A DNA stretch of 64,000 nucleotides from a virus. The position numbers were made by a program, and so were the translations under genes. The notes beneath the pieces are model-generated. The model was given only the letters and a program-made list of their open reading frames with translations. It searched no databases and had not been told where the DNA came from. This document shows, piece after piece, positions 4,496-48,963 of the stretch; positions within the stretch are counted from its first letter, which is position 1; each line of letters begins with the position of its first letter. The DNA lies in the UHGV virus genome UHGV-0076294; one strand, written 5' to 3'.

Positions 4496-4528
4496 TTTAC
4501 ACCACGCTCCGTGAATATGGAGGTGGAC

Positions 4529-7033
4529 ATGTTAAAAGTTGAACGTATTGTACTTAAAGGGTTTACCGGAATGGGATTACACGAAATCGAAACCTTCGAT
4601 TTTACTATCCATTCCCCAACCACCATTATCCTCGGTGGTAACGGCTGCGGTAAGACCAGCTTACTGTCCGTGTTTCTACCTATCGCACCTTCGAAATCCG
4701 AATTCCGTGACGGGGGTTCTTACACCAACATCTGTTTGGTTAACGACCATCGTTACAAATTTAAGGTTGCACGTAAAGGCAACTCACTGGTTTGCGATAT
4801 CGAGAACCTGACGACGGGCACCAAAATCGTCGAACAAGGTAATGCGAAAGTGTATAACTCTCGTGTAGAAGAAATCACGGGCATTACAAAAGAGATTAAA
4901 GAGTTACTGAACGGAGAAGTGCTTTTAACGGATGCAGGAACGGAACTGCGTCGTAAGTGGTTCTACCGTTTAAGTACGTCAGACTTAACTTACGCGTTAG
5001 GTTTTTATCAACGTTTACGAAAAAACCTGACGATGTTAAACGGCGGTATTGAAATCACCAGCCGCAAGATTGCAGAGTTGCGTACCCGCGTGATTGATAA
5101 CGAGGAAGAACGTCAGCAGTTAGCAACACGGTTAAAAGCATTAGAAGTGGATTTACGTGAAGTCAACAAACAGATTGAACAACTGCCTGGTCTGAATCGC
5201 GACGTTACGGTGGCAACGATTCAATCGCTATTGCTTAAAATCGAAGCACCGATTAATGCTATCTTGGAACACCGTGGCGGATTACCTACGGAAGAACGGG
5301 TAGAGGAAGCACGACGCGTTGAAGCCACTGCCCGTGAAGCGGTGGTCTCTGCTGAAACAGAACTGTCCATGCTAAACAAAGATTTGTCTTTGTTGATGGA
5401 CGAGTCTACCCGCCAAGATTACCTGATGCGGAATCACGAAGGGTTAAAGAACACGGTTGCAAAACTGCGTGAGTTATTAAAGCAGTGGGACACCGAACAT
5501 CTTTTCCCTGAACTGTTTGCGGAGACCGTTAACATCGACCAGCTTAAAGCAGCGACGGATGCGCGTGTCTGGGGACAACGTTTAGGAACAACGCTGGACG
5601 CCATTAAATCGACAGAACGGTTGAACGTACTGGAAGAGAAACTGTTGACCTTAGACCAAAACTCATCTGGGTTGCGTGACCGACTACAACGCGTTGAAAA
5701 CGTATTGCAGAACCTCAACCACGAACGGAATCACTATTTGGAAACCGCCGAGGTTGATTGTCCGCAGTGTCAATTTAAATTCCGTCCGGGCGTGCGTCGT
5801 TCTTTGCCTGAATTGGAAGAAGCCATTCGTGGACAAATGGAGCAACGTAATACGTTACAGACTCAGCTTGATTCCGTATTGCGAGACCGTACGGAATTAG
5901 AGTCGGACGTTAATTACATGCGTCAAGTACGAGAAATCGTTTTAACATACTCGAAAGACCCGGTATTGAGTTTGTTCTTTAAACGTCTCCAGGAGCGGAA
6001 TGTCTTTACGGATAACCGCAGTCAATTCGGCAGTTTGTGTGCAGAGTTCGATCGTGAACTTTATTCCGCAATTGAATACCACGAAACGAAACACCGTTTT
6101 GCTAAAGCGGAAAAAGAGTGGGCAAACGCAGTTGCAGCGGTAGGTAACGTTGACGGTGCACTACAGCAGAAAATTGCCTTCCAGCAGGAGCGTTTGGGTA
6201 AGGCGACAGAAACGCTCTCAGAGCGCCGTAGAGAGCACGCAGTTGCTAATGATACCTTTTGTTATCTAAACGAACTTAAAGCCACTGTAGACAATTTTAA
6301 TGCGGTTTTTGAGCGTTTAGAGAACGATGTTAAGGTAACATTAACCAATACGGTGGTCGAAACGTTATTAAACGCCCGAGAAAACAAGTTGGATGCGTTC
6401 ACCACAGCACGGGAACGGTACCGTCAGATGGAAAACGAGCTCAACCAACTTACTGCGTTAGAAAAGGAGTTATCGGATTTACAGGCACAGCAATTCAATA
6501 ACAAACTGATGATTCAAGCGTTCTCGCCCGAGAAAGGGGTATTACGCAAATACTTCTACAACGCTATCGTGAGAATCACAGAATTAATGACGCGCTATAT
6601 CGAACAAGTCTGGACCTACCCTATGCGGGTCATGCCGTGTGACTTAACCGATGGTGACTTAGACTACACGTTCCCAGTGCAGTTAAAAACCCATCCTGAA
6701 CCGGTACCTGACGTGCGGAAAGGGTCGAAAGCACAGCGAGCCATCTTTAATTTGATGTTTCGTTTAACCGCTTACAAAGCCCTGAAACTTCATCAGTATC
6801 CGCTACTGTTGGATGAACCGTCAGAAGGGATGGATGAGGAACACCGAAATAACCTCGTCGGGTTTATTAAAACCCTGGCGAATTCCGGTGAGTTCTCTCA
6901 GTTACTGGTGGTATCTCACGAAGCAGAAATTCATTCAAAACTTAACGAAGCCGCATACTGTGTTATTGAACCTGAAGGCGTAACACTGCCTGCGGTATAC
7001 AACGAGGGAGTAAAAATTGTCTACGCAAACTGA
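4529..7033 (+). CDS. Rad50/SbcC-like recombination ATPase (T4 gp46-like)
   Basis: Walker A GGNGCGKTS, long coiled-coil middle with CPQC zinc-hook-like motif, Walker B LLLDEPSEGMD and VVSHE H-loop near C-terminus. Start moved to ATG 4529 after GGAGGTGG RBS (ORF track 4511). Confidence 0.7.
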   Translation: MLKVERIVLKGFTGMGLHEIETFDFTIHSPTTIILGGNGCGKTSLLSVFLPIAPSKSEFRDGGSYTNICLVNDHRYKFKVARKGNSLVCDIENLTTGTKIVEQGNAKVYNSRVEEITGITKEIKELLNGEVLLTDAGTELRRKWFYRLSTSDLTYALGFYQRLRKNLTMLNGGIEITSRKIAELRTRVIDNEEERQQLATRLKALEVDLREVNKQIEQLPGLNRDVTVATIQSLLLKIEAPINAILEHRGGLPTEERVEEARRVEATAREAVVSAETELSMLNKDLSLLMDESTRQDYLMRNHEGLKNTVAKLRELLKQWDTEHLFPELFAETVNIDQLKAATDARVWGQRLGTTLDAIKSTERLNVLEEKLLTLDQNSSGLRDRLQRVENVLQNLNHERNHYLETAEVDCPQCQFKFRPGVRRSLPELEEAIRGQMEQRNTLQTQLDSVLRDRTELESDVNYMRQVREIVLTYSKDPVLSLFFKRLQERNVFTDNRSQFGSLCAEFDRELYSAIEYHETKHRFAKAEKEWANAVAAVGNVDGALQQKIAFQQERLGKATETLSERRREHAVANDTFCYLNELKATVDNFNAVFERLENDVKVTLTNTVVETLLNARENKLDAFTTARERYRQMENELNQLTALEKELSDLQAQQFNNKLMIQAFSPEKGVLRKYFYNAIVRITELMTRYIEQVWTYPMRVMPCDLTDGDLDYTFPVQLKTHPEPVPDVRKGSKAQRAIFNLMFRLTAYKALKLHQYPLLLDEPSEGMDEEHRNNLVGFIKTLANSGEFSQLLVVSHEAEIHSKLNEAAYCVIEPEGVTLPAVYNEGVKIVYAN

Positions 7034-8695: not shown

Positions 8696-9220
8696 ATGCT
8701 TACCTCACTCGGTAAGACCGTTATGCTAACGATACTTCCAGAATCGGATATTGACAACGACCTGTTTAACGCCCCTGAGCGCTTCAAGGTCGTTACGATA
8801 AATTGTGTAGGGGCAATGGGTCGGGGTATCGCTTTAGCGTGCAGAGAACGCTATCCTGGTCTTTATCAGGACTACCGAGAACGTTGCTTCGCTAACGAGA
8901 TACGAATAGGGAATGTGTACGTTTATCCCGAGGAAAACTGCATTCTCTTACCAACTAAAACACATTGGAAACTGAAATCCCAGGTTTCTTATGTTATCGC
9001 GGGTATCACCGCGTTGGCAGATGCCGCAGAAAACTTAGAGGGTGGGGTGGCTTTACCGCCGTTAGGGATGGCCACCGGTTGGTTGACAAAAGCTGAACGT
9101 CAACAAATCTTTTTGTTTATCGAAAAGAAACTCGTACCAAGGAGACAACATTACCGTTTCTATTTACCCGAACCGCTTTACCAAGAAGCAAAACCTTTAA
9201 TTCCAAACCTTTTTAAATAG
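8696..9220 (+). CDS. macro-domain-like protein (putative ADP-ribose binding/hydrolase)
   Basis: FKVVTINCVGAMGRGIALA ... ILLPTK ... VALPPLGMATGWL resembles the macro-domain motif order (N-x-x-G-x-x-G-x-G then PxxGxGxxG). Start uncertain (8696 or 8723); possible 35-aa ORF 8622-8729 in another frame. Confidence 0.45.
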   Translation: MLTSLGKTVMLTILPESDIDNDLFNAPERFKVVTINCVGAMGRGIALACRERYPGLYQDYRERCFANEIRIGNVYVYPEENCILLPTKTHWKLKSQVSYVIAGITALADAAENLEGGVALPPLGMATGWLTKAERQQIFLFIEKKLVPRRQHYRFYLPEPLYQEAKPLIPNLFK

Positions 9221-9238: not shown

Positions 9239-9320
9239 ACAACAAAGGAGTACCAGCTGTCCGCGCCGTGATTTCGTTCTACGGAATACGGAAATGTATA
9301 AATCCAACTGGAGAACTAGT

Positions 9321-10007
9321 ATGTTTCGTATCTTCTTTCTTTTACTGGTAACACTTTTCGCGTTTAACGCATACGCATCCAAATCCGCACCCAGTGCCAA
9401 ACACCATCGTGAATTCGAAATGATTCAAGACCGTTTCGAACGGGTAAAACCGTTGATTGTGGAAATCTCTCGAAAGCAGGGTGTTGATCCTAATTTAATG
9501 ACCACGCTAATCTATCGAGAGTCACGGTTTAATCCGAAGGCGTATAATCGAACGTCTAAAGCGCACAGTCTGGTTCAGATGCTACCGAGCACAAAGCGCA
9601 ATTTGCTAAAACTCTACGGTGCCGAAATCGGACTTAGTCGCAATGCGGATTTGTACAATCCTCGTAATGCGGTGCTATTGGCTTCCGTCTACGTTAAACA
9701 TTTAGAAAAGGGGTTAACTAAACGACTCAAACGCAAGCCCACTATTGCAGAAATAGCATTGGCTTATCACTGGGGTGAAAGCGGTGCACACGCCAGGATT
9801 AAAAGCAAGTCTCGGGCAGCACAACGAGAAATGGCGAGCTTTATGAAAGATGCAACGTTCTACAGTGCGAAAATCAACAAGCCTGTAGCATCTCGTCAGC
9901 TTGCGTTTGCGAAGAAACCAGAACGCCAGATTCAGTTAGCAGAAGTTAACCGAATTTGGGATACGATAAACACCAGTTTTCCATTTAAACAAGGAGTCAC
10001 CCTTTGA
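9321..10007 (+). CDS. secreted lytic transglycosylase (SLT domain), endolysin or periplasmic candidate
   Basis: Signal peptide MFRIFFLLLVTLFAFNAYA; SLT motif LIYRESRFNPKAY...SLVQMLPST (catalytic Glu-Ser context). Start at ATG 9321 after GGAG RBS (ORF track 9294). Confidence 0.75.
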   Translation: MFRIFFLLLVTLFAFNAYASKSAPSAKHHREFEMIQDRFERVKPLIVEISRKQGVDPNLMTTLIYRESRFNPKAYNRTSKAHSLVQMLPSTKRNLLKLYGAEIGLSRNADLYNPRNAVLLASVYVKHLEKGLTKRLKRKPTIAEIALAYHWGESGAHARIKSKSRAAQREMASFMKDATFYSAKINKPVASRQLAFAKKPERQIQLAEVNRIWDTINTSFPFKQGVTL

Positions 10008-15775: not shown

Positions 15776-16510
15776 ATGACATACCCGAAAACGATTCAAC
15801 CCACCTTACCGACGCTGGTAATTGGTGCTGACGCAGAAACCAAATCACTGCGTCCTGATGCGTATTTGTTAACCACAGGCTTAGTTGCCTTTGACGTACC
15901 GACTTTAAAAATGGTAGGGTCGTCGTATATGCGTATTGATCCTAACGACCCTAAAGCAAAAGCTGTGTTCCACGAAGACCCGCAAACCGTGGGGTGGTGG
16001 GAAGGTAAAGGAGAACCTGAATACGCGCCGTCTCGTGAAGCCTACACGGAAGCATGGGGTGGTACAACTCCTATGCCGGAAGCGCTGTGGGCAATGCGGA
16101 AGTGGTTAGACGAAATCACCGGCAAACACAATTTCGTTATTACCATGCGTGGGCCAGATTTCGATTCTCCGATTTTCATGAACGCGTTCGCACAATGTGA
16201 CGTCCCTCCAGGTAAGTTCCGTAAGTTTAGTGCGTTAGACAGCGACCGCACCGCAGAGCGTTTAGCGCTGGCGTTTGGTTTTGAGCCTGACTTGACCGTT
16301 GAGCAAGTTTACTGGACGCGGGGTAAACCGGCATTTGAACACCATGCTTTGTGGGATGCCGCGAAAGAAGCGTACACCACCGCACGTATTTATCACCTTG
16401 CACTGATTACCCGCGAGTATGGGTACGAACGTGCTAAAACCTGTCACGAAGAACTGAAAACCGGTGAGTATATTCCACCACAGATTCGTGATCAGTTAAC
16501 CAGGGATTAA
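15776..16510 (+). CDS. DEDDh-type 3'-5' exonuclease (DnaQ-like fold)
   Basis: Exo I-like LVIGADAET and Exo III-like HHALWDA (H-x4-D) motifs; RBS AAAGGAG. Confidence 0.55.
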   Translation: MTYPKTIQPTLPTLVIGADAETKSLRPDAYLLTTGLVAFDVPTLKMVGSSYMRIDPNDPKAKAVFHEDPQTVGWWEGKGEPEYAPSREAYTEAWGGTTPMPEALWAMRKWLDEITGKHNFVITMRGPDFDSPIFMNAFAQCDVPPGKFRKFSALDSDRTAERLALAFGFEPDLTVEQVYWTRGKPAFEHHALWDAAKEAYTTARIYHLALITREYGYERAKTCHEELKTGEYIPPQIRDQLTRD

Positions 16511-16512
16511 GA

Positions 16513-18024
16513 ATGAAGAACGTTGATGTTGCTGTACTTTATACCGACGGTAGCCATTTAACCTCACCGATGGGAACAGGCGGTGGGATTCACGGCTACC
16601 TGTTTAACAAGGAAGAGATTGTTGACGGTGGCGTTTATCGCCACCCTACCATTCCCGAAGGGATTACGACCTCTGGTTATCGTCAGATTAACAAAGAGGA
16701 AAAACTTCCTGCGTTACCAGACTCTGTTGAGTTCGTAGACTGTGTTATTCCGGTACCGAAACACCACCACTCTGATGTTGCAGAGATTGTTGCTTTTTTA
16801 ACCGTTTTCGAAAAAGCACCGTTCGTTGCAAAAAACTACGTTATCTATATCGACGCGTCTTACGTTGTGAATACGTTTAACGATTGGATTGACGGTTGGG
16901 CTAAGCGGGACTGGCGACGGGCTGATGGAACCCCTATCGCGAACCTTGAACTGGTTCAACGGATGTGGGAAATTAAGAAACGTCTGAAGAGAGAAGGGAA
17001 AGGGATTCGTGTTCTTAAAATCAAAGGACACTCTGGTCACTACGGTAACGAACGGGCTGACGGGCTGGCACGAAAGGGATCATCCATCTCTGCGCACGGA
17101 GAAGGTTTAGATTATCAGGCGTACTGGTCAGCAGACGAAATCCCGGAAGAACAGCAGGAAGAAATCGTCAGTGAAGGCGTTAACGTTGCCGCGTTTCCTG
17201 ATATTTGCGTAACTAAGTTCTGTTACCCGATGGTAAATGAGCAACACCCTACGGTTAAAGTAAACGGTGAAAATCTCTATTACATGTTCGGGGGTAACCA
17301 CGCAAAACAGAAGGACGATATTGTCTTCGTCGGAAAATACATCCCTGATGCGCAGTTTTGTGTGATGTTTACACGTGAACCGTGGACGAACGTTTACGAT
17401 TTGGTTAACGCCCACGCTGCTAAAGCCTGGGAGGGCGTACCACGTTTGCGTCAGTTTGACCCTATCGCTGTTGTGTTCAACCTGTTCGTAAAACGTAAGA
17501 AGTTTGCGGAAGCAGCGGCTAACGGTATCCCGGTTGACAAAATGCACTTTAGCGAAGACAAAAACCTGTGGATGTACGAAGACTTGTCTATCAGTCGTAT
17601 TCTGCGTCCCGCGTTATTGTCATACCGCTGCGTAACCATTCGTGATGAACTGGCAGAGTGGCTGCGTGACTGTTTGGAAGGCAAATCGAACGTTGTCTTA
17701 AATGACATTACCGATTTGCTTTATGACGAAAAAGGTAAACCCACCAAAGACTTTTACCGAAACGTGGATAAAGGGTTTGACGTTTCCATTAAAATTCCTA
17801 ACGGGAAGGTTGACGTTAAAACTATTCTGACGCGTGCTATCGACATACCGACACGTACGGAAATCAACCGTATCAAAGAACCAAACGGGAGATTCTACAT
17901 TGCCGTACGACGTCCAGAACGTCAGTATATTGAATATGCGTTAGTGTATATCGGTGAGAAGTATCATGGTCTGTGGTGTGGTTATTATTCAAACAAACGA
18001 ATATTGACCGATAAGGAACTTTGA
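16513..18024 (+). CDS. RNase H-like nuclease with ~300-aa C-terminal extension
   Basis: N-terminal VLYTDGS..., mid YIDASY, and KIKGHSGHYGNERADGLA match RNase HI catalytic motifs; 503 aa total. Confidence 0.7.
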   Translation: MKNVDVAVLYTDGSHLTSPMGTGGGIHGYLFNKEEIVDGGVYRHPTIPEGITTSGYRQINKEEKLPALPDSVEFVDCVIPVPKHHHSDVAEIVAFLTVFEKAPFVAKNYVIYIDASYVVNTFNDWIDGWAKRDWRRADGTPIANLELVQRMWEIKKRLKREGKGIRVLKIKGHSGHYGNERADGLARKGSSISAHGEGLDYQAYWSADEIPEEQQEEIVSEGVNVAAFPDICVTKFCYPMVNEQHPTVKVNGENLYYMFGGNHAKQKDDIVFVGKYIPDAQFCVMFTREPWTNVYDLVNAHAAKAWEGVPRLRQFDPIAVVFNLFVKRKKFAEAAANGIPVDKMHFSEDKNLWMYEDLSISRILRPALLSYRCVTIRDELAEWLRDCLEGKSNVVLNDITDLLYDEKGKPTKDFYRNVDKGFDVSIKIPNGKVDVKTILTRAIDIPTRTEINRIKEPNGRFYIAVRRPERQYIEYALVYIGEKYHGLWCGYYSNKRILTDKEL

Positions 18025-21084: not shown

Positions 21085-22017
21085 ATGTATTTGTACAAAA
21101 GTAAAAAAGTAAAAGGTATTAAAGACTGCCTTAGACAAATGGGGAGTCAGCATCTAGAAAATGTCATGGAAGAAAATCAAACAAAAGAAAATCCTGTCTC
21201 GAAATGGATAAAAAAGAATCGTAATCATCTAACCAATAGCTTTATACCGTATAATGAAGATTTAGGTCTCAAAGATCCACGTTCCCTTCACGCTCAAACA
21301 TTGGCAATTGGATGGCTATACGGCGGGGCTTCCTTAATATCCGATCGAGCACTTAGAGAACTTGTTTTTGAGACTGAGATGCCCAGTAAATTCCCTGAAG
21401 AATGGTTGGACTTTATACCTACTTGGACTGTGGCAATCGATGTAGGTAAAGAGGATGAGACTTTCTTTCTCGGTTATCGAAAAAATGGGAAGAGAAGGTT
21501 TATTATAATTGCTACAAATACTGATTACGGGTTAACAGAAGGCGTTACCACGATTGCCACTTGTTCGTTAGAGCTTCGTAGTGCAGGAAACGGACTTGTG
21601 GAAATCGACTATGCCGACGGTGTGGAGAACGAACAAGAAAAGATGCTATGGTTATCTCTGGCCAAAGCCGCCACATCGATGATATTTCTGTGTACGCTAA
21701 TCCCACCTAATCTCAAAACGTCTTACAATGACGTTAAGTTCAAAGAAATCAAAAAGAACGGCAGTATTAGCTACGAAGTCAAACCTCGTGAACGTGATGT
21801 TAAAGTGGATATCACACCAGGACAAGTAAAATATCTAAAAGGATTTAACACCGACTTGAAAGCCATGCAGGGTATCAAACACGCTAAAGCTGCGCACATT
21901 CGTCGTGCCCACTGGCGTAGATACTGGGTTGGTCCAAGAAACGGTGAAAGAAAAAGAAAACTTTGCTGGATTCCACCGACATTTGTTCGCGGCTACGTAC
22001 CCCACACGCAAGACTAG
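21085..22017 (+). CDS. hypothetical protein (paralogue of 22028-22912)
   Basis: C-terminus AAHIRRAHWRRYWVGP...WIPPTFVRG nearly repeats in next gene; RBS TAGGAG. Confidence 0.6.
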   Translation: MYLYKSKKVKGIKDCLRQMGSQHLENVMEENQTKENPVSKWIKKNRNHLTNSFIPYNEDLGLKDPRSLHAQTLAIGWLYGGASLISDRALRELVFETEMPSKFPEEWLDFIPTWTVAIDVGKEDETFFLGYRKNGKRRFIIIATNTDYGLTEGVTTIATCSLELRSAGNGLVEIDYADGVENEQEKMLWLSLAKAATSMIFLCTLIPPNLKTSYNDVKFKEIKKNGSISYEVKPRERDVKVDITPGQVKYLKGFNTDLKAMQGIKHAKAAHIRRAHWRRYWVGPRNGERKRKLCWIPPTFVRGYVPHTQD

Positions 22018-22027
22018 GAGAATTATA

Positions 22028-22912
22028 ATGTTAAGACGCAGAATTTATGGAGACACGCTTCGACGTATTAGTGAAGCTATAGAGACTGCACACAAAGACT
22101 TGTTTGGTCTGAAGGAAGATCGTTTTCTAACGTTTGTCAGGGAACACAAGAGGCAACTTCCTGTAACCTTTCTGCCCGTTAACGACCCAACGTACCGTGT
22201 GTTCGGCACCACCAAACAGGTGCCGTATTCTATTCGCCAATCGTTAGGTTTGGGCTGGCAATACGCAGGTATTGAAATTATCTCTGATAAAGAGTTGATG
22301 GGACTACTTGCAGACACAGAACGTTTAACGGATATTCCGTACGCGTGGATTGAAGCAATTCCTTCATTCACCTTTTCCGTGACTGTAAAGATTAACGAAC
22401 TACCCGCTACGCTCTTTATCGGTCGTCGTAAATTCGAAGGTGAGGAAGTATTGTTCGTTTTACGATGGGTGGAGATAAATCAGCGGCACTGTTGGTCAAC
22501 CAAGATTTATCGGTTCAACAGAAAGGCAGATGACTTTGTTAGTTTAGAGCCTTACTTTGCTAACGAGTCAAAGGACGAGGAACTTCTGGATGAGGTACAT
22601 ATCGGTTTATATCTTTCCTCGCGGGTGAAGAAATCGGAACGCGAGAGACGGGAATACCGTGGTAGAACGACACGTTACGTACCTGATACAGAAATCCTCC
22701 CACGCAGAGAACCTGTCGTCGTTGACGTAAGTCCAGTACAACGCGAAGACTTAGAAAAACAACGCAGGGAAGGCAGGAGAATCTGTTTAACGCCTCATCG
22801 CGCAGCACACATACGCAGGGCTCATTGGAAACGGGTCTGGTGTGGGCCAATGACAGGACCACGCTGGCAGGAGTGGCGATGGATTGCACCCACCTTTATA
22901 TCTGGTTTTTAA
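22028..22912 (+). CDS. hypothetical protein (paralogue of 21085-22017)
   Basis: Start set at ATG 22028 after AGGAGAA RBS (ORF track 21905 overlaps upstream gene); C-terminus AAHIRRAHWKRVWCGP...WIAPTFISG. Confidence 0.6.
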   Translation: MLRRRIYGDTLRRISEAIETAHKDLFGLKEDRFLTFVREHKRQLPVTFLPVNDPTYRVFGTTKQVPYSIRQSLGLGWQYAGIEIISDKELMGLLADTERLTDIPYAWIEAIPSFTFSVTVKINELPATLFIGRRKFEGEEVLFVLRWVEINQRHCWSTKIYRFNRKADDFVSLEPYFANESKDEELLDEVHIGLYLSSRVKKSERERREYRGRTTRYVPDTEILPRREPVVVDVSPVQREDLEKQRREGRRICLTPHRAAHIRRAHWKRVWCGPMTGPRWQEWRWIAPTFISGF

Positions 22913-22927
22913 TGTGAAAATAAAGAT

Positions 22928-22975
22928 TACCCCTAGACCACAAGGTCTAGGGGTAGCTTTTACTTTTTATTTTTT
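22928..22975. terminator. bidirectional intrinsic terminator
   Basis: TACCCCTAGACC-acaa-GGTCTAGGGGTA flanked by T-rich runs for both strands, between convergent genes. Confidence 0.65.
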
Positions 22976-23722
22976 GTTTGCCTTCAGCGCTTTCAGGCGT
23001 TCAGCCGTCACGTTCAGACATTCAATCAATTCGTTCACCTGTTTCATGAACAAACCAAACAGTTCAACCCAATCGGATGCAAAGTCTAACATCGCTGTCA
23101 GTTCTTTTGCCACGTTAGGATGAATGTTTTGTTCAGACAGAATCGTTGCAGAGGCTTTAATAGACTCGATGGATTTGTCGATGTTCGTACGAAGTTTCTT
23201 CGTGATTTCAACGTTCAGTGCTTTTGCACGGTTAAACGCAATATCGATCTCCGTAGCACTGTGGTACGTTTTCTCAATCGGACGCTGGTCAATAACGTTG
23301 TTGATGTAAGACTTAGCCAACTGGTTAACCAGGTCTTTCGGATTCACGTTACGTAACGGAATGTTAACGTTTTTATAACGGAAACCGATAGGTAATGACA
23401 GTACGCCCACATCATGTGTAAGGGCGGAAAGTTGCAACTCAACAGGTAAAAGGACACCGTCGTAGATCTTCTGTAATGAACTCCATACCGATTCTAAGCG
23501 GTTAATGTGATCCATTACGTAGGTATTGAAGCCTGGCGGTACAATAACCAACATGCCTGCAAAGTGTAAGAATTTTTCCTGTTGCATCCACTTGGAAACG
23601 TCTGACATGTCGTCGTAAGTGGTTAATGCAATCTCTTGTTGAGGGCCACTGAACCCTTTGGGTAAGATTGCAGACGCTTTAGCGGCAAAGCTAGTTAACG
23701 CTGCAAGTGGATTTACGTTCAT
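22967..23722 (-). CDS. hypothetical protein
   Basis: Lone minus-strand 251-aa ORF inside a plus-strand block; own terminator and divergent upstream region. Confidence 0.55.
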   Translation of the reverse strand: MNVNPLAALTSFAAKASAILPKGFSGPQQEIALTTYDDMSDVSKWMQQEKFLHFAGMLVIVPPGFNTYVMDHINRLESVWSSLQKIYDGVLLPVELQLSALTHDVGVLSLPIGFRYKNVNIPLRNVNPKDLVNQLAKSYINNVIDQRPIEKTYHSATEIDIAFNRAKALNVEITKKLRTNIDKSIESIKASATILSEQNIHPNVAKELTAMLDFASDWVELFGLFMKQVNELIECLNVTAERLKALKANKK

Positions 23723-24119: not shown

Positions 24120-24134
24120 TTATTGGAGCGCTAA

Positions 24135-25631
24135 ATGGCAGGCCCAACTAAGCAAGTTATCGGTGAAGTAATTCGTCCTCGTTTTAACGTTTATACCATC
24201 ATGGACCACGCCTTAGGCAACTACGAAAGAGGCGAAGATGGTTTATACTACCTTAACGGTGGTTTTGCCCACATCATGGGTTTCGCGGGTCGTGGTAACA
24301 CCTTCAAATCCACACTGTTGGATTTCTGTATCTTCCAAATCCTACAACGCTATAAAGCAGAGTGGGGTTCGAAATACGATACCGAAGTGTCTGCTGCCCT
24401 CGATCGCTTAGAGACCGGTTATATTTCTGCCATGCACGCCAACGGTATTGACGATGGAACTTCGGTACTGGAACTTATTCACGAAGGTCGTTATAACCTC
24501 GTTGGTTCTGACGTGATGCCAGGGGAACAATATTACAGTGACTATATTCGTGATGAAGTGGAAAAACGCTTCAAGCAGTATATGTCTGGTAAAACGCGTG
24601 TAACGCCGTTCCTCGACCCGGTTCGTCGTAAGCAAAAAGAAATCCTTGACCCGTGGCTGTATTCTATCGACTCCCTGTCGGAGTGGCACTCGTCTTCTCT
24701 GGAAGACAAGCACGCTAAAACGGATATCGGTGATTCCGATCAGAACATCCTCAACGCCCACGACGCCTTACAGAAATCGAACATGATGAGCCGTTGGCCG
24801 TCTGCGTTTGCCCGTGGTGGTTTCTACATGGGCTTTGTTGCACAGATGGCCGATGACTCCGGTAAGGCGATGGCAGGCGGTCGTCAAGGACAGAAAGCAA
24901 ATGCGAAACTGCTGGACGATGCGAACGACGATCTCAAATTCGCAGGGATTCCTCGTCGTCAGTTAAGCTTCCTGACTAACTCGTTTATTGTTGCGACAAA
25001 ATCAGGCGAGCTGAAAAAAGACCAGAGTTATAACGCCCAGACCGGTGTTAACGAAGAACTTTACCCAACCGCACGTTCAAAAGCCATGAACGCGTCGGTT
25101 AACGACCTGAAAGTTATCACCTTTACGCAGTACCGTGCTAAAGGCGGTCACACAGGCGTGAAGTTCCAGATGATCTTCTCGCAAGAGATGGGTCTACTGT
25201 ATCACCTGAGCCTGTGGCACTACCTGAGTGATACCCTGAAAAAATCCGAATTTGGATTTACATCCAGCGGTAGCGGTGGTTCCATTAAAGAACTCCAGAT
25301 TCTGCCTGGTGTTAAATTCCAGCGTACGACGATTCGCGACATGATCGACGATAACCCGAAACTGCGTCGGGCATTAGAAATCACGGCCGCGATTGCGTAC
25401 ATGCAGAACAACTACCATCGTTTAGAGGTTAAATACCACCTCACGATGGAAGAAATCTACAAACTCATTGATGAAAAATGGGATTGGAATGAGATTCTGG
25501 AGAACACCGTAGAATACTGGATGTTTAAAGACCAAGAAACGAAAGGTGGTAAACGTACGTTAACTGCCCGTACGATTCTGGGTATGGCCGTGGACGGCCT
25601 GGAACCGAAGTTCCTCACCAAAAAGAAATAA
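24135..25631 (+). CDS. UvsX/RecA-like recombinase (divergent)
   Basis: GFAGRGNTFKST resembles the atypical Walker A of T4 UvsX (AGPSKSFKS, recalled from memory); ILDPWLYSIDSLSEW resembles the RecA-family Walker B (..IDSL..). 498 aa with extra regions. Confidence 0.5.
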   Translation: MAGPTKQVIGEVIRPRFNVYTIMDHALGNYERGEDGLYYLNGGFAHIMGFAGRGNTFKSTLLDFCIFQILQRYKAEWGSKYDTEVSAALDRLETGYISAMHANGIDDGTSVLELIHEGRYNLVGSDVMPGEQYYSDYIRDEVEKRFKQYMSGKTRVTPFLDPVRRKQKEILDPWLYSIDSLSEWHSSSLEDKHAKTDIGDSDQNILNAHDALQKSNMMSRWPSAFARGGFYMGFVAQMADDSGKAMAGGRQGQKANAKLLDDANDDLKFAGIPRRQLSFLTNSFIVATKSGELKKDQSYNAQTGVNEELYPTARSKAMNASVNDLKVITFTQYRAKGGHTGVKFQMIFSQEMGLLYHLSLWHYLSDTLKKSEFGFTSSGSGGSIKELQILPGVKFQRTTIRDMIDDNPKLRRALEITAAIAYMQNNYHRLEVKYHLTMEEIYKLIDEKWDWNEILENTVEYWMFKDQETKGGKRTLTARTILGMAVDGLEPKFLTKKK

Positions 25632-25676: not shown

Positions 25677-25976
25677 ATGCGTTATCAAACGGAGATTGTG
25701 GAGCGCTTAAGCGAAGGTTTAGCCAGCGTCAGTCTGGAAACAGCAGCGGCATTTCGTGAGACTTTCGCTACTTTCTTTCCCGATCGTGAATCTTTTTGTT
25801 TAAAGGTCGGTGAATATTATTCCAAGTTACTCGAACACTACGGTTACCCGCCGGTGAAATTCGACGTACCTGAAAACACCGACGACATCAGTTATTGGAT
25901 TGAAACCCTCGAAGCAGGGACACTTTCCAACTTGCGTAAGGCGGTAGAAAATGAGACTCGATCCAGCGCGGCGTAA
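25677..25976 (+). CDS. hypothetical protein
   Basis: 99-aa ORF; AAGGAG RBS. Confidence 0.45.
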   Translation: MRYQTEIVERLSEGLASVSLETAAAFRETFATFFPDRESFCLKVGEYYSKLLEHYGYPPVKFDVPENTDDISYWIETLEAGTLSNLRKAVENETRSSAA

Positions 25977-26619
25977 AAAAGCAGAAGCTTACGCCTTACA
26001 AATCTTAAACCTGGTTGACCCCTCTGGGATTAATGCAGAGGCAGCAAAGAAAGCTTTTGCTCGAATGACAGACGAACAGTTTAATCGTCTTCGTGAAGGG
26101 CTACCGATTTACAACCCGGTTGGCAGCAAAGTTAAAATAGACCACATGCGAAACGTTGAGCTATGTCGTGTTTTAGGTTTGAACCTGGAACAGCGGTTGT
26201 GGTTAACTGAGCCGAAAACGGGTGTTTTCCATCGTACCCGCTACCCACATCTGGTATTGCGCTTGCCTGCGCGTCGTCAAACGCAGATGCAAGAAAAGAA
26301 AATGGCAGTAGCGAAGAACGACAAAGTTCGTGATAAACTCTCCGGTCAAGTTGTTGGTCCTTCTAAAGCATCTGGTGTATCTTTCCCAGAAGCGTACATC
26401 ATGTACTCCGATGGTCACGACTGGACACTGAAAGAGTTTCTGTGGGCGCGTGGGGGTAACGAAGCTTTACAACGTGCGTTCTATCAATCGTTACGTCAAA
26501 CCGGTAAGGGACGTATTGACCTGCCGGGAGCAGAACGTACCAGTTCGAAAGCAACACGTACCTGGTCTGCGTATCTGAAAGCGATGCACATTGGTAACAA
26601 CATAGGCCATCCGTCATGA
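25951..26619 (+). CDS. hypothetical protein
   Basis: 222-aa ORF; start uncertain (overlaps previous gene by 26 nt). Confidence 0.45.
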   Translation: MRLDPARRKKAEAYALQILNLVDPSGINAEAAKKAFARMTDEQFNRLREGLPIYNPVGSKVKIDHMRNVELCRVLGLNLEQRLWLTEPKTGVFHRTRYPHLVLRLPARRQTQMQEKKMAVAKNDKVRDKLSGQVVGPSKASGVSFPEAYIMYSDGHDWTLKEFLWARGGNEALQRAFYQSLRQTGKGRIDLPGAERTSSKATRTWSAYLKAMHIGNNIGHPS

Positions 26620-40174: not shown

Positions 40175-43100
40175 TTAACCCGCACGTCTAACGTTAAGCT
40201 GTCGTGCTGGCTGTTCAACGGACATTTGTCGTGATGCTGAGCCTGCTGGTGCCATAGGTTGGGTCGATACGGTGTTTTGTACCGGCTGCGGACGTTGTTT
40301 AAGAATCGTGACAATCTCTCTGAGATACCCCGCCGATTCTTTCGCAACAGCCAACTGCTGGACACTAATCGGATCACCGCTACTGAGTGTAGGCCCGTTT
40401 TGTGCATCAGAAGTAACCGCAGGTGCCGGTTTACTCGTTGCTGCTACGCGCTGCACAGCGCCTTCTTTCACCTTCTCGACATCTTCTTCAGGCAACCCTT
40501 CGTTTCTAGCTCCAGCCGCAACGGTCTCCGCAATCGTAGAGGCGTCGCCGCCAGCACTACTACCGCCAGGTGACGGTACTGCCGGACCACCACTGGTTGC
40601 AGCTTTGACATTGTCTGCACCCATCGCACCTTTCTCTGCTAACGCATCGTCACGACGCGCAGCATTCGATGCGGGCAAGTTATCCGTCGCTCCAGAAATT
40701 GATGGATCGTTAGCTGCTCCTGCTGCTACCGCTGGAGAGGAGGCAACCGCAGGCGTTAGCCCTTTCACCATGTCTTTCGTTGAAGCTGGGTTAGCCGCAA
40801 TTTCGTTTGTCGCCACAGCACCCATACGGCGGTTCAGTTCATTAATAACTTCGCCAACAGTACGAATACGAACAATCTGTTCGCCTCGCATTTCGTAGAA
40901 GACTCCCTTATTACCTCTAAGGATTTGAGGAGTAATACCTTCTGCTTTGTCGGCTGGCATGTTCGGATTCTGCCGCCATGCATTAAGGAACTTCTTACCA
41001 CCGCCTGGACCCAAGAAGTGATACAGATACGCAACAGCCGGGGGCGGTTCTACACCACCCAGGTCTTTCTGCGCCTGCATGATATTATCACGAATAAACT
41101 GTACCCCGAGGATGGTATTTGCCCACGGGTCATACTGGTTTACTTGCGGAATACCGTACCGACGAGAATACCCCTTCATCATTCCAGACCACGTACTGTC
41201 GATGAACTGGAACAACCCTGCTGCTGACGCACCTGGGTTCTTGACGCCGTATCTGAAACCAGATTCAGCTTTCGCCATCGCAATCGCAATCGCAGGCGGA
41301 ACACCTAAGGTATTTGCGACATCTGCAATCATTGCTTTAACGCCTTCTACGTTAGGTGTCTTACCACTACCCAGTTTACTGATTGGATATTTCTCAGCCA
41401 AGGTTTTGTAATCACCTTCTTTGACGTCCCCGAGTTTAATCCCGGATTGGCCCGTAGAGAACTTCGCGTAATTGCTGATCCCCATCTCACCCACAACTTG
41501 AGATAAGTCACCCGGTGTACCGTAAGACGACCCACCGTTTGGCAAGTACCCATCGTTAGACGCTGTACCCCAATCAACGACACCTTTAAAGCGTTCTTTG
41601 CCATCTTCGTCGGTTTGGTACATTCTCGTCGCACGATCGGCTTTCTGCCACTTCGCACGTTTACCTGCTGCGGGAGTAGAGCGCAGGGTGTTACGAACAG
41701 CCAGGTCAGGTTCTTTTGACAGTTCTTTCAGGTTGGCAAGTTCAGTAGCAACAGAACCTGCATCAGTGTTTGCTTCCTCGCCTAGCGGGTTGAATGGAAT
41801 CTCCCACACGGACTGTCGAATACCGCCCTTCATGTTGTAAGCGCCACGAATCATCAACGCCAATTCGTACATGAACCCACCGGATACTTTCAATTCGGTA
41901 GGGTCTGCTTGCGGAATGTAACGTTTCAGACCAACGACGTAGGTCATATACGCCGGTAAGAAACGGTTGTAGAACCAGTTCTTACAACGCTCCTCTTTAG
42001 GACCACCTATCAAGTCAGGCGAGATAACCGCAATGGCTTCTTTCCAGTTGCCTTTATAGGTACAGTTCTTCACATCAATGTCTTTCAACACGTTCTTCTC
42101 TAACAACGTGAAAAGATTACGCGTTGTTTGGTTGATAGTAACCGCACCGTAGGTTTTCCACCTGACCGATTCCAGGTCTTCCAAATCGCTTTTCTTCGGT
42201 AATGAATGCCAGTCAACTTGGATTTGAACCTGCTCAGTCCCGTCTTCCCATCCTTCAACCTTCGCAACTTTCTCGTTACGTTCAGCATCCGCATTCGCCA
42301 ATACCTGACTGGTTTCAGCAACGGACGCAATTTTGTGGCCTTCGACAGCGTCACGCATACCTGAACGTTGTTTCCGTTTGTCGTCAGTACGCATGTTGAT
42401 TGACCGCCACACACGTTCCTGTGCTTCGACAACCTCTTCCCCTGACAAGAACTCTGCCGGAGTAAAGGTAACGAAATCCCACGCTTTAGAGAACCAACCC
42501 TGGTTAACTTTACGCGGGTCAGTCAACGAACGGAATTCCGCAGAATCTTTACCCATCTTCATTTTGTTGTAGAGGGTAATCATATCCGCTTTCGACACTT
42601 TCTTCGGATCACCAACATCTGCCAAAGCGATATCGTTATCCATAGACTTCAGTGCTGAAATCCAACGGAGGTAAATCGGTGCGAAACGTTGTAGCATAAA
42701 CGCAGTAAATGCTAACATCTCACCACGTTCTTCCAAGTTTACACCAAACCCTTCTGCGAGTTTCTTCACGTCTTCGGAAGACAAGCCACGTAATTGTGCT
42801 TCACCCCCTTCGGTATACGAGACGTAAGGTTTCAAAGCGTCTTCTAAATAACGGGCTTTCATACCGTCTTCAGAAGACCACTGGTCGTAGTCACGGAAAC
42901 CGTATTGTGCCAGACGCATATAGTCGAGGTACTGCGCTTTCACACGGGTAGCGCATTTATACGCCCAATAACCCAGACCAGCGGCAGTCGCACCGATCAC
43001 AATTGCAGGCCAACCCACCGCAGCTACCACCGTAGATGCAGCTGAGGCTACCGCAGTCACCGCCGGAACCGCTAAACGCTGTACGGCAAACTTACCAACA

Positions 43101-46100
43101 TTCCACGCTGCTTTACCGATGAACCCGGTAGGTTTAAAAATACCCCACTTCGCAACTTTACCCAGTATGGAACCCACCGTACCTAAGATACTCACGATTG
43201 GTCCTACTAACGGTAGCCCTTTGAGGAAGTCCATCACCCCGCCTTTACGTCCTTTCTGTTCGGCGGATTTCTTGGCTTTCTCTTCTTCCTTAGAACGTCT
43301 ACGACGACGGAAGAATTGGAAGTAGTCGCGTTTTTCATCATTGGCTGCCGGTTTGTTACGTTGTCCGAACTTACTGAACATCGTACGAATCAAGCCATCA
43401 GGCGCACCAGCACGTTCCGCAGAGTCACGCATGGTGTTAAACCAGGACATTTCCTGGAGGTTAACCATCCGGTTCAAACGTTCCAGTAATGCTGAACCAA
43501 CACTCTTCGCTTTCTGCTTACCTTTGTTGATAACGCGCCCTGCGCTATCCGTTGCGGTTTCGAAATCCTCCTTCGCTGCGTTAATCACGCGTGTTGGAGA
43601 AACCTTACCACGGGCGTATAAGTGTTGGCGGTAAAACTCAGCAACGTCATCGTCACGACCTGCTAAACGAGACTCCGCCCGATAACGTGTACCGATATCG
43701 TAGCGTGGATCACGGAAGCTATCCACCGTTTCGCCAAAGCGTCCACGGAAACGGTCAAACCACCCTTTACCCGCAGCACCCCAACGAGACAGTCTATCGC
43801 CAACACCCTGACGGAAACGTGAGAATCGGTCACGTTGTCTGCCTCGCCAATCCCGGAAACTCTGGAAATAGTCTTTAAACCCATCGCGGAAATCCTTAAC
43901 GCGGTTAAGCATCCCTTTGATAGATTTCGACCCAACGTTTTTCTCCAGTTGCTCCGTCCAGGATTCATCTTCAGGCTCACCATCTAAACGACGGTTAAGG
44001 AGTTTATAGATACGAATCAGGATATGGTTGGTCTTACGGCCATTCGACCAGGAGAACATGCTGAAACCGCCACCAGAACCCCCGTCCTTACGATTCTGCC
44101 ACCACCGGGTAAGCGGGTTGTCGGTCGCTAACTCTTTGAATTTCTCAAAGCCACGTTTTGCATTGTTCCACAAACGAGCAGGCATTCCGGTTACACGGGA
44201 AATCATGCTTTGTAAACGTGTTTTCTCACTGCCTTCAGGAATCTCGTTAAGCCACTCACGTGCTTTCTCAAAGATAGACGCTGCTCTTGGTGAAATTAGA
44301 CCAATAAGTTTCTTCGGTAAGTTAACAGCTTTGTTTACCGCTGTACCTGCTTTACCGGAGATATACTGGAACAGGGCCTGGAGTTTACCGCCTTTATAGA
44401 AGCGCAGTTTACCCGCAGCCGCTAAGTCCGCCGCTGCGAGAATCAAGTTCCCGGCTTCGTCAACAATATCACGACCCAGCTTAATGTCGTCTAACGAGCG
44501 GAGTTGTACCAGTTTGTTGGTTTTAGGGTCAGCCTGATAATACTCACCTGCCTCTAAACGGTTTCCTTGTAAAACAACATTGCCTTTCTCGTCGTAGATG
44601 TCTCGAACACCAAGAACGCCTTTCCCGAACGCTACTGCTGAATTCCAGCCTGTGGACAGCGTACCAGTAACTAAACCTTTCAGTCGTTCAAAAACACCTG
44701 GACCGTCAGAAGACCCACCGGAGAACTTCCCACGGATAAAACTGCCCAGTGACTGTAAACGCCCTTTTCCTCTCAGGAACATGTTCTTCGCAAAACGACC
44801 AGCGCCCGTACCGGTGTCCCAAAGTACGCCCGCCCAACGACGGAACAGCCCGCTTTCACCAAGCACAATGCGCTTACGTTTGCGTTTGTTGCCGGTACTA
44901 CCCGCGTCTTCGGATGCGACACCCTCACCGTCACGACCACCACCTAAGCTTGCCAACAGAATACCTTCTTCATCCATGTTCTTGACATGTTTCAGAATTT
45001 CCTGCACGGTGTTGGATTCGGATTTGTTACGGATAGCATCAACGATTCTATCAAACTGTTGCTCTAAACCCGCATTAGTGTCAGGCCGTTCGCTTAACAG
45101 TTCAACAAAGTTGGTGGATTTTTCACCGTAGAGGACAGCAGCGAGTTGTCGTGCTGACAGCCCACGGCCACCACGTCCACCTTTACCTCTAACGGTGTCG
45201 ATAGTCGACTCATCACCGGTTACGGAAGCGTCTACACCTAAACGACGCAAATAGTCACCTAACGCAGAACCGTTTTTCAGTTTGCGCTGGATTTCTTGTT
45301 CACGCGTTAACGAACGACCAGAGCGAGTTTTCCCCATGGCCAGGTCGTTGTATAGCGTATACGGATCGTTAATGTCTTTATCTACATCAAACCGATCGTT
45401 CTTCGCATCGTACTTAAAGATACCTGCGTCACGTAACGCATTCTCACCGTAGATAATTGAAGCTTCGTCTACCGTGTTTTGACGTGCACGAATTGTTGAC
45501 TGAATAGCTGAAATCTTACCAGCAATCTCATTGCTAAGTTCATGATGCCCACCAACCAGTTCCGCAGAACGGGCTTCTAAGACCGCCTGAATCGCTTCTA
45601 CCGCGTTTGCATTCATGTAACGATACATGTGCATCGGGTCTTTCAGCAGACTGCCTACGTCGAATGCCTTACCTTCAGACGCACGGGATTCGATATAGTC
45701 CGCCAGCGCCTGGCGAGTTTTCGAATCCAGAGTTTTGTCTTTGTCGATAAAGTCAACGGTTTCGTTAATGTACTGCTGTAAACGTTTACGCTGTTCGTCA
45801 TTAGCAACTGCCTTACGTACGCGATTGCCAATAACTTTACGATCCACCATACCTCGCGTGGTCAGGTCATAAACCTGATCGTGGTGTTCGCCATATCCAC
45901 GACGAATAGATTTGTTAATCTCCGTCAGCAAGGTCGGGATGACTTCCGTGATGCTAAGATATGCTTTACGGTCGAACTTCGCTGCTGCTGATAACGCCTC
46001 TGCTGAACGTTCTTCTAAAGCTAATCCCTCACGACGCAGCGGTGTCACTAACCCCATCTCGTGCATTAAACGGAAGACAGTGGCCAATGGACCATCTATC

Positions 46101-47337: not shown

Positions 47338-48963
47338 GTGAATAAACTTAATTGGGTTGACTTTTATCTGCTCAATGTAAACAAGTCTCTTGTGTCGCGA
47401 TTACGACCCGTCACGACCACAGATACTTTTCAAGGGTTGACAAAAAACTTTCACCCTGAAGGGTTGTACTCCACGGAGATTTTCGGTCTTACGGGAAGTG
47501 AAGCCCGAGACTCAACGTTTTCTTACATTGATATTAAATTAGATATCATTTCGCCGACGGTGTGTTTGGCGTTATTCCAACTAAAACAACTCTACGAAGA
47601 AATTTGTTCTGGAAAACGCTACGCAACCTGGAACGAAAAAGAAAAAGATTTTGAACCGGCTTTGCCTGGCGACGCTGGCGCAGATACCGGTTTTAACTTT
47701 TTCCTTAGTCACTACAACGACTTAAAACCCGGACGTAACGAATCGTTACAACGTGACGAAACGGTGGATTTCTTCGAGAAGTTCCGTCCCGTGAGTCTTA
47801 GCCGCTATGTTCTCGTATTACCCGCGGGTTTACGTGATTTGGTGGTTAGACAAGACGGTAGGGAACAGGAAGAGGAAATCGGTGGGTTATATCGTCGTTT
47901 GATTTCTTTGGCCAGGGCGATTCCTGACCGTGCTACACGGGTTGAATTAACGAACCCTGTGCGATGGAAACTCCAACAAACCTTTAACGAAATCTGGATG
48001 TACTTCTTTAACATCCAGGACGGTAAAGGAGGTTTCCAACGTCGTAAAGTGACGTCGCGTAAACTGATGAACGGGACACGTAACGTATTGTCCTCATTCT
48101 CCACAGGCTCTAAATGCATGGGGCGTGAGGATGCGATTCGACCGACCGACACCAAAATTGGTTTGTATCAGGGTCTGAAAGCGTTGCTACCTGTTGCGCA
48201 ATACCAGATACGTGAACGTTACCTCGGTAACATTCGTGCTGGCGATGGCAACCTTTATGGCGTAAACACCAAAACGCTTAAACGCGAGTTCTTGGAGGTT
48301 GGGGGTCGTGTTTACGACACCTTTACCACAGACGACGGTATCGAAACATTAATTAACCGGATGGAAGCTCGCGAGCTTCGTCATCAACCGTTAATGATTA
48401 ACGATACCCATTACGTCGCACTGGTCTACCAAGACAACAAACATTTTAAGGTGTTCTACGATATCGATGAACTGCCTAAAACGTTTGACCGTAAAAACGT
48501 CCACGGAATGACCCTGGTAGAATTACTCTACTTATCGGGTTACGAACTGTGGAACAACTATTTCGGTTTCGTTACGCGTTATCCCGTCACCGGTCGAGGC
48601 TCGACGTACTCATCGACCATAAGATTGGAGACCACCACGTCATCTTTATACCTAAAAGAACTGGAAGATGACTGGGAGACTGAAAAGCCACACGGAGCTA
48701 TCAGTTATCCTGACAGGTCGGTTCCAACCTTTGTTGAGTCGATGGCACCGCACCCGTCACGATTGGGTGGCTTAGGGGGTGACTACGATGGTGACACCGG
48801 TTCACTTAACGCGCCTATGTCGCAAGAAGCACTCGAGGAAAACCGTAACTGGATACACTCGAAGAACTACTGGTTCGATTCTGACGGGAATTTCAAAATC
48901 AATCCTGTCAACAACGTGATTAAACGTGCGACGCAAGCGTTATTAAAGAATCCAAAAGGCTAA
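47338..48963 (+). CDS. RNA polymerase beta-prime-like subunit, N-terminal fragment type, tentative
   Basis: GTG start after AGGAGA RBS. C-terminal ...TRYPVTGRG...APHPSRLGGLGGDYDGDTGSLNAPMSQEALEE parallels beta-prime NRAPTLH...LHP...[23 protein letters not shown]; motif position (~485 of 541) matches E. coli beta-prime (~460). Confidence 0.5.
   Translation: MNKLNWVDFYLLNVNKSLVSRLRPVTTTDTFQGLTKNFHPEGLYSTEIFGLTGSEARDSTFSYIDIKLDIISPTVCLALFQLKQLYEEICSGKRYATWNEKEKDFEPALPGDAGADTGFNFFLSHYNDLKPGRNESLQRDETVDFFEKFRPVSLSRYVLVLPAGLRDLVVRQDGREQEEEIGGLYRRLISLARAIPDRATRVELTNPVRWKLQQTFNEIWMYFFNIQDGKGGFQRRKVTSRKLMNGTRNVLSSFSTGSKCMGREDAIRPTDTKIGLYQGLKALLPVAQYQIRERYLGNIRAGDGNLYGVNTKTLKREFLEVGGRVYDTFTTDDGIETLINRMEARELRHQPLMINDTHYVALVYQDNKHFKVFYDIDELPKTFDRKNVHGMTLVELLYLSGYELWNNYFGFVTRYPVTGRGSTYSSTIRLETTTSSLYLKELEDDWETEKPHGAISYPDRSVPTFVESMAPHPSRLGGLGGDYDGDTGSLNAPMSQEALEENRNWIHSKNYWFDSDGNFKINPVNNVIKRATQALLKNPKG

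Follow-up and report, generated by a model that had tools for sequence, protein, structure and literature searches.

The open reading frame at positions 24135-25631 of UHGV virus genome UHGV-0076294 very probably encodes a RecA/UvsX recombinase of the type found in the jumbo phages phiKZ, SPN3US and Asesino, an enzyme that, by analogy with its better-known relatives, would depend on ATP, coat single-stranded phage DNA and promote strand invasion. The DNA analyzed here is a 64,000-nucleotide stretch of this genome (the window), in which positions are counted from the first letter. A first-pass annotation, made from the letters and their translations, had called the product a 498-amino-acid UvsX/RecA-like recombinase, and that assignment is borne out by a match to phrog_97, by comparison of its family with eight UvsX proteins using hhalign, and by an AlphaFold2 model searched with Foldseek. 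Our data support membership of the RecA/UvsX superfamily through a homology that is visible only by profile–profile and structure comparison. We file the protein neither as a canonical RecA nor as a canonical UvsX but in a jumbo-phage clade of its own within the superfamily, because the N-terminal helix is missing.

The gene is a single open reading frame on the plus strand with an ATG start, taken from the listing of the window's open reading frames. The gene and its translation signal are as follows:

24135-25631, plus strand: coding sequence of the jumbo-phage UvsX/RecA-like recombinase, called from the open reading frame, the phrog_97 match, similarity to SPN3US and phiKZ, and the RecA fold.
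24125-24128, plus strand: GGAG ribosome-binding site, 6 nucleotides 5' of the ATG, read from the sequence and verified by a string check.

A longer N terminus is ruled out by an in-frame TAA (24132-24134) that abuts the ATG. The reading frame is not a chance one, because homologs occur in 278 phage records searched with tblastn and in 869 clusters recovered by a profile search. Within the translation, AGRGNTFKST occupies residues 51-60 and SIDSL residues 177-181.

The match in PHROGs is to 'UvsX-like recombinase' (phrog_97, E 1e-54). For the profile–profile comparison, we aligned 37 sequences of the family and compared this alignment with one of eight genuine UvsX proteins using hhalign, which returned a probability of 89.3% and an E value of 2.1e-6 over 181 columns. 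The catalytic motifs fall into register, pairing G52..K58-S59 with UvsX G60..K66-S67, E84 with E92, D179-S180 with D143-S144, and Q237 with H195. The AlphaFold2 model, which had been proposed as a check on the assignment, gives a RecA fold, with a predicted local distance difference test (pLDDT) of 87.3 and a predicted template modeling score (pTM) of 0.89; only residues 242-265 are disordered. Structure comparison places a RecA-type core fold of the additional strand, catalytic E (ASCE) class of P-loop ATPases in the protein, and RecA and UvsX make up the whole of the top 50 Foldseek matches to this model in the Protein Data Bank (PDB) (best E 4e-10), with no other P-loop family among them. 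The C-terminal domain modeled by itself also has RecA as its best structural match.

The motifs expected of such an ATPase lie along the coding sequence as follows:

24288-24311, plus strand: Walker A motif, or P-loop, G52-R-G-N-T-F-K58-S59, of the UvsX-type form G-x4-F-K-S, aligned to UvsX G60..K66-S67.
24384-24386, plus strand: E84, putative catalytic glutamate (YDTE), equivalent to UvsX E92 (YDSE) and RecA E96, placed by hhalign.
24654-24674, plus strand: Walker B strand W-L-Y-S-I-D179-S180 (modeled strand 174-178), with D179-S180 aligned to D143-S144 of the UvsX FIDS motif.
24720-24749, plus strand: putative L1-like DNA-binding loop TDIGDSDQNI, to be compared with RecA EIGDSHMG, placed by hhalign to RecA 143-197.
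24843-24845, plus strand: Q237, at the gamma-phosphate sensor position (RecA Q194, UvsX H195), placed by hhalign.
25134-25142, plus strand: R334-A-K336 on a beta-hairpin, candidate trans-acting ATP-site pair, from conservation and hhalign.

The first-pass annotation had described the P-loop as lacking the canonical placement of its lysine. This does not hold: K58 stands in the canonical G-x4-x-K-[ST] spacing, and hhalign aligns the loop residue for residue with that of UvsX. The departure lies instead at the second Walker A glycine, which is replaced by phenylalanine (F57) exactly as in T4 UvsX (G60-x4-F65-K66-S67). The T4 UvsX sequence used for comparison, with the AGPSKSFKS cited in that annotation and with FIDSL, is 100% identical to the T4 record, and the annotation's placement of IDSL in a Walker-B-like context was correct, with D179 following strand 174-178 and aligning to UvsX D143. 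The window's GRGNTFKS is nearer to the UvsX consensus than is the SRPNNFKT of phiKZ, and its GxxxxFKS pattern differs from the GPESSGKT of bacterial RecA.

We counted conservation at these positions across 152 family representatives, phiKZ gp152 included. In Walker A, K58 is present in 151 of 152, serine or threonine at position 59 in 151 and N55 in 147. The P-loop glycines are held more loosely (G52 in 131; G54 in 95, with proline in 36), and position 57 is phenylalanine in 93, tyrosine in 31 and the canonical glycine in only 14. The catalytic glutamate E84 is kept in 149, the Walker B aspartate D179 in all 152 and its neighbor S180 in 148. At the sensor position, the glutamine of the window protein is found in 20 of the 152, as against the family-typical histidine in 130. 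The F-K-S P-loop and the sensor histidine that the family has in common with UvsX suggest a branching of the clade from UvsX and not independently from RecA. The IGDS at residues 198-201 sits at the RecA L1 position in an alignment that is not significant by itself (E 0.17), and in this putative loop G199 is kept in 138 and N204 in 133 representatives. Both R334 and K336 occur in 151. RecA K248/K250 and UvsX K246/R248 complete the ATP site of the neighboring subunit.

At 498 amino acids the protein is 107 residues longer than T4 UvsX (391 amino acids), as the first-pass annotation had estimated at about 100. In the model, the extra ~100 residues are divided among insertions in the core, a long L2 loop and a helical extension at the C terminus that is specific to the family. 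The segments that depart from RecA and UvsX, together with the C-terminal domain, are listed here:

24135-24194, plus strand: N-terminal segment, residues 1-20, MAGPTKQVIGEVIRPRFNVY, predicted as coil (DSSP, pLDDT) in place of the ~30-residue helix of RecA and UvsX.
24387-24653, plus strand: expanded region from beta2 to the Walker B strand, recognized from secondary structure and from the gaps that hhalign opens in UvsX.
24846-24944, plus strand: enlarged L2-like loop after the Q237 sensor, with pLDDT below 50 for residues 242-265.
25191-25412, plus strand: RecA-like C-terminal domain, residues 353-426, comprising a helix, two strands and two helices.
25413-25628, plus strand: family-specific helical C-terminal extension of ~70 residues, 427-498, with the basic tail FLTKKK.

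Within the N-terminal segment, N18 is nearly invariant in the family alignment. The catalytic glutamate and the Walker B aspartate are 94 residues apart (E84-D179), compared with 50 in T4 UvsX (E92-D143) and 47 in RecA. Two additions that T4 UvsX lacks at this place lie between them, a helix at 111-116 and a beta-hairpin at 155-170 with a conserved TPF; the segment also has two nearly invariant residues, F159 and P173. The L2-like loop, of ~33 residues, is about twice as long as the ~15 residues of RecA and also longer than that of T4 UvsX, and its residues 242-265 are predicted to be disordered, as in L2; K258, L260 and K268 are conserved. A longer connection (293-324) precedes the R-x-K hairpin. 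The C-terminal region of ~150 residues is different from and larger than that of T4 UvsX, and it ends in a basic tail where that of UvsX is acidic. In its final extension (427-498), W451, T458, W462 and M484 are conserved, and we found no significant structural match for this part.

These features set the protein apart from each of the known groups. Its identity to T4 UvsX (PDB 3IO5) is ~16-17% in the aligned region, a resemblance undetected by BLAST and Pfam, and it lacks the N-terminal helix of UvsX. Identity to bacterial RecA (Escherichia coli; PDB 3CMU, 7JY6) is 12-14%, and relative to RecA the protein again has no N-terminal helix and carries the core insertions and the ~70-residue C-terminal extension. 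Compared with Rad51, RadA, DMC1 and the Rad51 paralogs, it has no Rad51-type N-terminal helix-hairpin-helix domain and possesses a RecA-type C-terminal domain that is absent from Rad51; its structural scores to the Rad51 group are lower than those to RecA and UvsX.

Several observations weigh against a recombinase of this superfamily. The search with the Pfam RecA model (PF00154), which the first-pass annotation had put forward as a check, gave no match to the protein at E values up to 10, and its 37 aligned relatives fared no better: at E values up to 1, Pfam returned noise only, with no RecA, Rad51, KaiC or AAA among the hits. An NCBIfam search likewise gave only noise, and neither a PDB sequence search with the single protein nor a profile search with the family profile produced a match. 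Against single sequences, hhalign is weak, with an E value of 0.004 and 8% probability for T4 UvsX and an E value of 0.17 for E. coli RecA, the motifs being in register in both; neither comparison convinces by itself, and the eight-sequence UvsX alignment was needed. The family P-loop is variable, and that of phiKZ gp152 (Nlp1), ASRPNNFKT, has lost both Walker A glycines. A greedy hhalign alignment sets R334 opposite UvsX K246 and K336 opposite R248 in a stretch of low confidence. The N-terminal helix that packs on the next subunit in RecA and UvsX filaments is absent, leaving ~16 coil residues before the core. Finally, assays of strand exchange or of ATPase activity were absent, for all jumbo-phage members of the family, from the literature that we searched.

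Three other explanations can be set against these data. The failure of standard sequence-to-profile searches to reach RecA would suit a convergent resemblance to UvsX, or an unrelated P-loop protein that matches its motifs by chance, but Foldseek, the structural comparison and the hhalign result with eight UvsX proteins effectively refute this idea, to which we attach almost no weight. The protein could instead be RecA-like but without catalytic activity, a scaffold or DNA-binding protein with a mainly structural or adaptor role in the protein-shelled phage 'nucleus'; its P-loop does depart from GxxxxGK[ST], to the point of the phiKZ sequence without either glycine, and the gene is dispensable in PCH45 (10.64898/2025.12.19.695335). 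We nevertheless consider inactivity very improbable. The Walker A lysine and serine or threonine, the catalytic glutamate, the Walker B aspartate and the sensor glutamine or histidine are retained in 149-152 of the 152 diverged representatives, and this near-invariance argues for selection on ATP hydrolysis; moreover, the same glycine-to-phenylalanine change in the P-loop is found in T4 UvsX, which is an active ATPase. A RecA-fold ATPase that is not a strand-exchange recombinase, such as a ring motor or a branch-migration or helicase-loader-like protein of the DnaB, RadA/Sms or KaiC type serving phage replication, appears unlikely to us, if somewhat less so than an inactive scaffold. Structural scores rank RecA and UvsX ahead of DnaB (15.2) and KaiC (13.6), as well as of the Rad51 paralogs (14-17).

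As a recombinase, the protein would act along the lines of RecA and T4 UvsX. It would bind ATP in a P-loop site to which the neighboring subunit contributes basic residues, polymerize on single-stranded phage DNA, and catalyze homology search and strand invasion; the expected outcome is the repair of broken phage DNA and, probably, the priming of recombination-dependent replication. These events would take place inside the phage nucleus, into which orthologs are imported. Import has been described for Asesino gp238 (PMC11724907), and that of the UvsX/RecA homolog Nlp1 (gp152) of phiKZ requires Imp1 and Imp2 (10.1101/2024.03.27.586873). The UvsX of PCH45, gp72, is nuclear and non-essential (10.64898/2025.12.19.695335). 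Nlp1 has also been used as a carrier to bring EcoRI or transposases into the nucleus (10.1101/2024.03.27.586873; PMC12676376), and deletion of nlp1 in phiKZ results in slow replication, small plaques, a competitive index of 0.05 and sensitivity to NucC, a nuclease of the cyclic-oligonucleotide-based antiphage signaling system (CBASS) (PMC12676376).

Because the N-terminal oligomerization helix is missing, the subunits of the recombinase probably contact each other in a way that is, in its details, not that of RecA. A bolder proposal, based on the loss of this helix and the gain of hairpin 155-170 and extension 427-498, is that the filament forms through an interface unseen in RecA, UvsX and Rad51, and that the C-terminal extension offers a surface for Imp1-type import factors or phage mediators. 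We put this forward tentatively, as a possibility that we think is less likely to be right than wrong.

The window derives from an SPN3US/Asesino-like jumbo phage. The protein aligns in 278 phage records searched with tblastn, all of them phiKZ-related jumbo phages, and in many of these it bears the annotation 'putative UvsX' or 'UvsX-like recombinase'. Salmonella phage SPN3US and its relatives match best (81.4% amino acid identity), followed by the Erwinia phages phiEaH2, Stratton and Asesino. The sequence itself is new, with a best phage match of 81% (SPN3US) and one metagenome protein at 96%, the latter on a contig with the same gene order. At the DNA level, the window matches phage genomes with only ~74% identity over 2.7 kb, so its own phage is absent from that collection. 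Other genes of the window fit a phiKZ-like phage, among them those for virion RNA polymerase beta fragments, a tail sheath, a prohead protease, a 2377-amino-acid tail-fiber-like protein, thymidylate synthase and MazG.

Proteins of the same family and of the same full-length architecture are phiKZ gp152, SPN3US gp216, Asesino gp238, RAY gp150, PhiPA3 gp175 and PCH45 gp72. SPN3US gp216 was named a diverged UvsX homolog in 2017 (PMC5694885). phiKZ gp152 aligns with residues 12-495 at 28% identity (E 2e-46), and both the sequence relationship and the synteny described below indicate that the window protein is its ortholog. A profile search of 1.84 billion representatives recovered 869 clusters at 50% identity, 508 of them at an E value of 1e-30. 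Nearly all of the 869 are 460-510 amino acids long, so the family is a discrete one, separate in sequence from canonical RecA and UvsX. Given the empty PDB sequence and profile searches, two deposited structures labeled 'putative phage UvsX' (7z3m and 9gbg) fall outside the family by sequence.

Some relatives differ in extent. In distant jumbo phages (Vibrio, Aeromonas, OBP and Klebsiella N1M2), tblastn finds the C-terminal part only, typically residues ~270-498 or ~310-498 and, in Klebsiella N1M2, only 389-497; the family is thus best conserved from the R-x-K hairpin through the C-terminal domain to the private extension. Two family members of 635 amino acids (P0023 and P0024) carry 140-amino-acid N-terminal extensions, and a third of 716 amino acids (P0077) carries one of 237; a Pfam scan of P0023 and P0077 gave no match. 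In the metagenome contig ERZ15185956 NODE_22493, a 773-amino-acid reading frame (P0061, positions 82-2403) joins an ATP-dependent DNA ligase (PF01068 and PF14743, residues 11-261) to a full UvsX-like protein (285-759). It occurs on one contig of 2.5 kb with a coverage of ~1.8, and it is either a real fusion or an error joining two adjacent genes. If taken at face value, the ligase partner lends mild support to a role in DNA repair.

The first-pass annotation had also proposed a nearby toolkit for recombination-dependent replication, composed of the following genes:

4517-7033, plus strand: SbcC/Rad50-like ATP-binding cassette (ABC) ATPase (phrog_77, E 7.7e-91; Pfam SMC_N at 35 bits, cut-off 40).
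15776-16510, plus strand: DEDD-type 3'-5' exonuclease (phrog_255, E 1.5e-45; PF16473 Rv2179c-like, E 2.8e-12).
16513-18024, plus strand: RNase H-domain protein, ortholog of phiKZ gp155 (Nlp2) (phrog_3265, E 1e-167; PF00075, E 2e-20).

The three genes are real and fit a recombination and repair repertoire. They form a scattered set and not an operon or module, lying 6-20 kb upstream of the recombinase gene with unrelated genes and a virion-protein gene in between. That the set serves replication is our inference and one already in the literature: a comparative study took the widespread RecA homolog to imply recombination-dependent replication in jumbo phages (PMC7824862). No SbcD/Mre11 gene was found beside the SbcC-like gene among the ten open reading frames scanned between 334 and 12655. 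In this region, a gene at 8696-9220 (plus strand, 174 amino acids) matches the PHROGs 'phosphatase' family phrog_335 (E 2e-28) and has a weak Macro-domain match below the Pfam cut-off (E 0.0012). The RNase H-domain protein is a full-length ortholog of phiKZ gp155 (BLASTP E 8e-33), which is imported into the phage nucleus; it has 503 amino acids, with the RNase H domain at residues 81-190 and a large C-terminal region.

Gene order around the recombinase follows that of phiKZ. The RNase H/Nlp2 gene (16513-18024), a reverse-strand gene (22967-23722), the UvsX-like gene and a virion RNA polymerase beta fragment (25951-26619) parallel phiKZ gp155, gp153, gp152 and gp149, and the flanking open reading frame 25677-25976 has no similarity to phiKZ gp151. 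Three plus-strand genes match 'RNA polymerase beta subunit' PHROGs (25951-26619, 47998-48963 and 48967-53133). A split multisubunit RNA polymerase is a phiKZ-like trait, and the first of these fragments is, as in phiKZ (gp149), the second gene downstream of the UvsX-like one. A scan for sigma-70 promoters and terminators around the recombinase gene found promoter-like sites below chance expectation, a result that tells nothing about a phage that has RNA polymerases of its own. A perfect hairpin with a 13-bp stem and T-runs on both strands, resembling a bidirectional terminator, lies at 22927-22956 between the convergent genes 22028-22912 (plus) and 22967-23722 (minus).

Tandem paralogs at 21085-22017 and 22028-22912 (plus strand; 310 and 294 amino acids) both belong to phrog_6160, of unassigned function, and have in common a C-terminal motif, approximately AAHIRRAHW[RK]R.W.GP...W.W[IC].PTF, with no Pfam match. 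The tail-fiber-like protein (40175-47308, minus strand; phrog_3201) contains a transglycosylase-like region near residues 1987-2247, and a 237-amino-acid protein at 9294-10007 (plus strand; phrog_4067) matches the same transglycosylase family.

A UvsX-like recombinase is already annotated in many phiKZ-like jumbo-phage genomes and is ordinary for such phages, so that its presence here means little beyond correct annotation. The jumbo-phage protein is nonetheless a standard tool for marking import into the phage nucleus and for carrying cargo there, and recent genetic work connects it with phage fitness and with the ability to survive attack by the CBASS nuclease NucC. To this our analysis adds an account, residue by residue, of the reasons why curated RecA models fail on the family and of the parts that depart from RecA and UvsX, namely the absent N-terminal helix, the core insertions, the long L2 loop and the private C-terminal extension. 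This account of divergence directs attention to how the recombinase polymerizes and to how the import machinery recognizes it.

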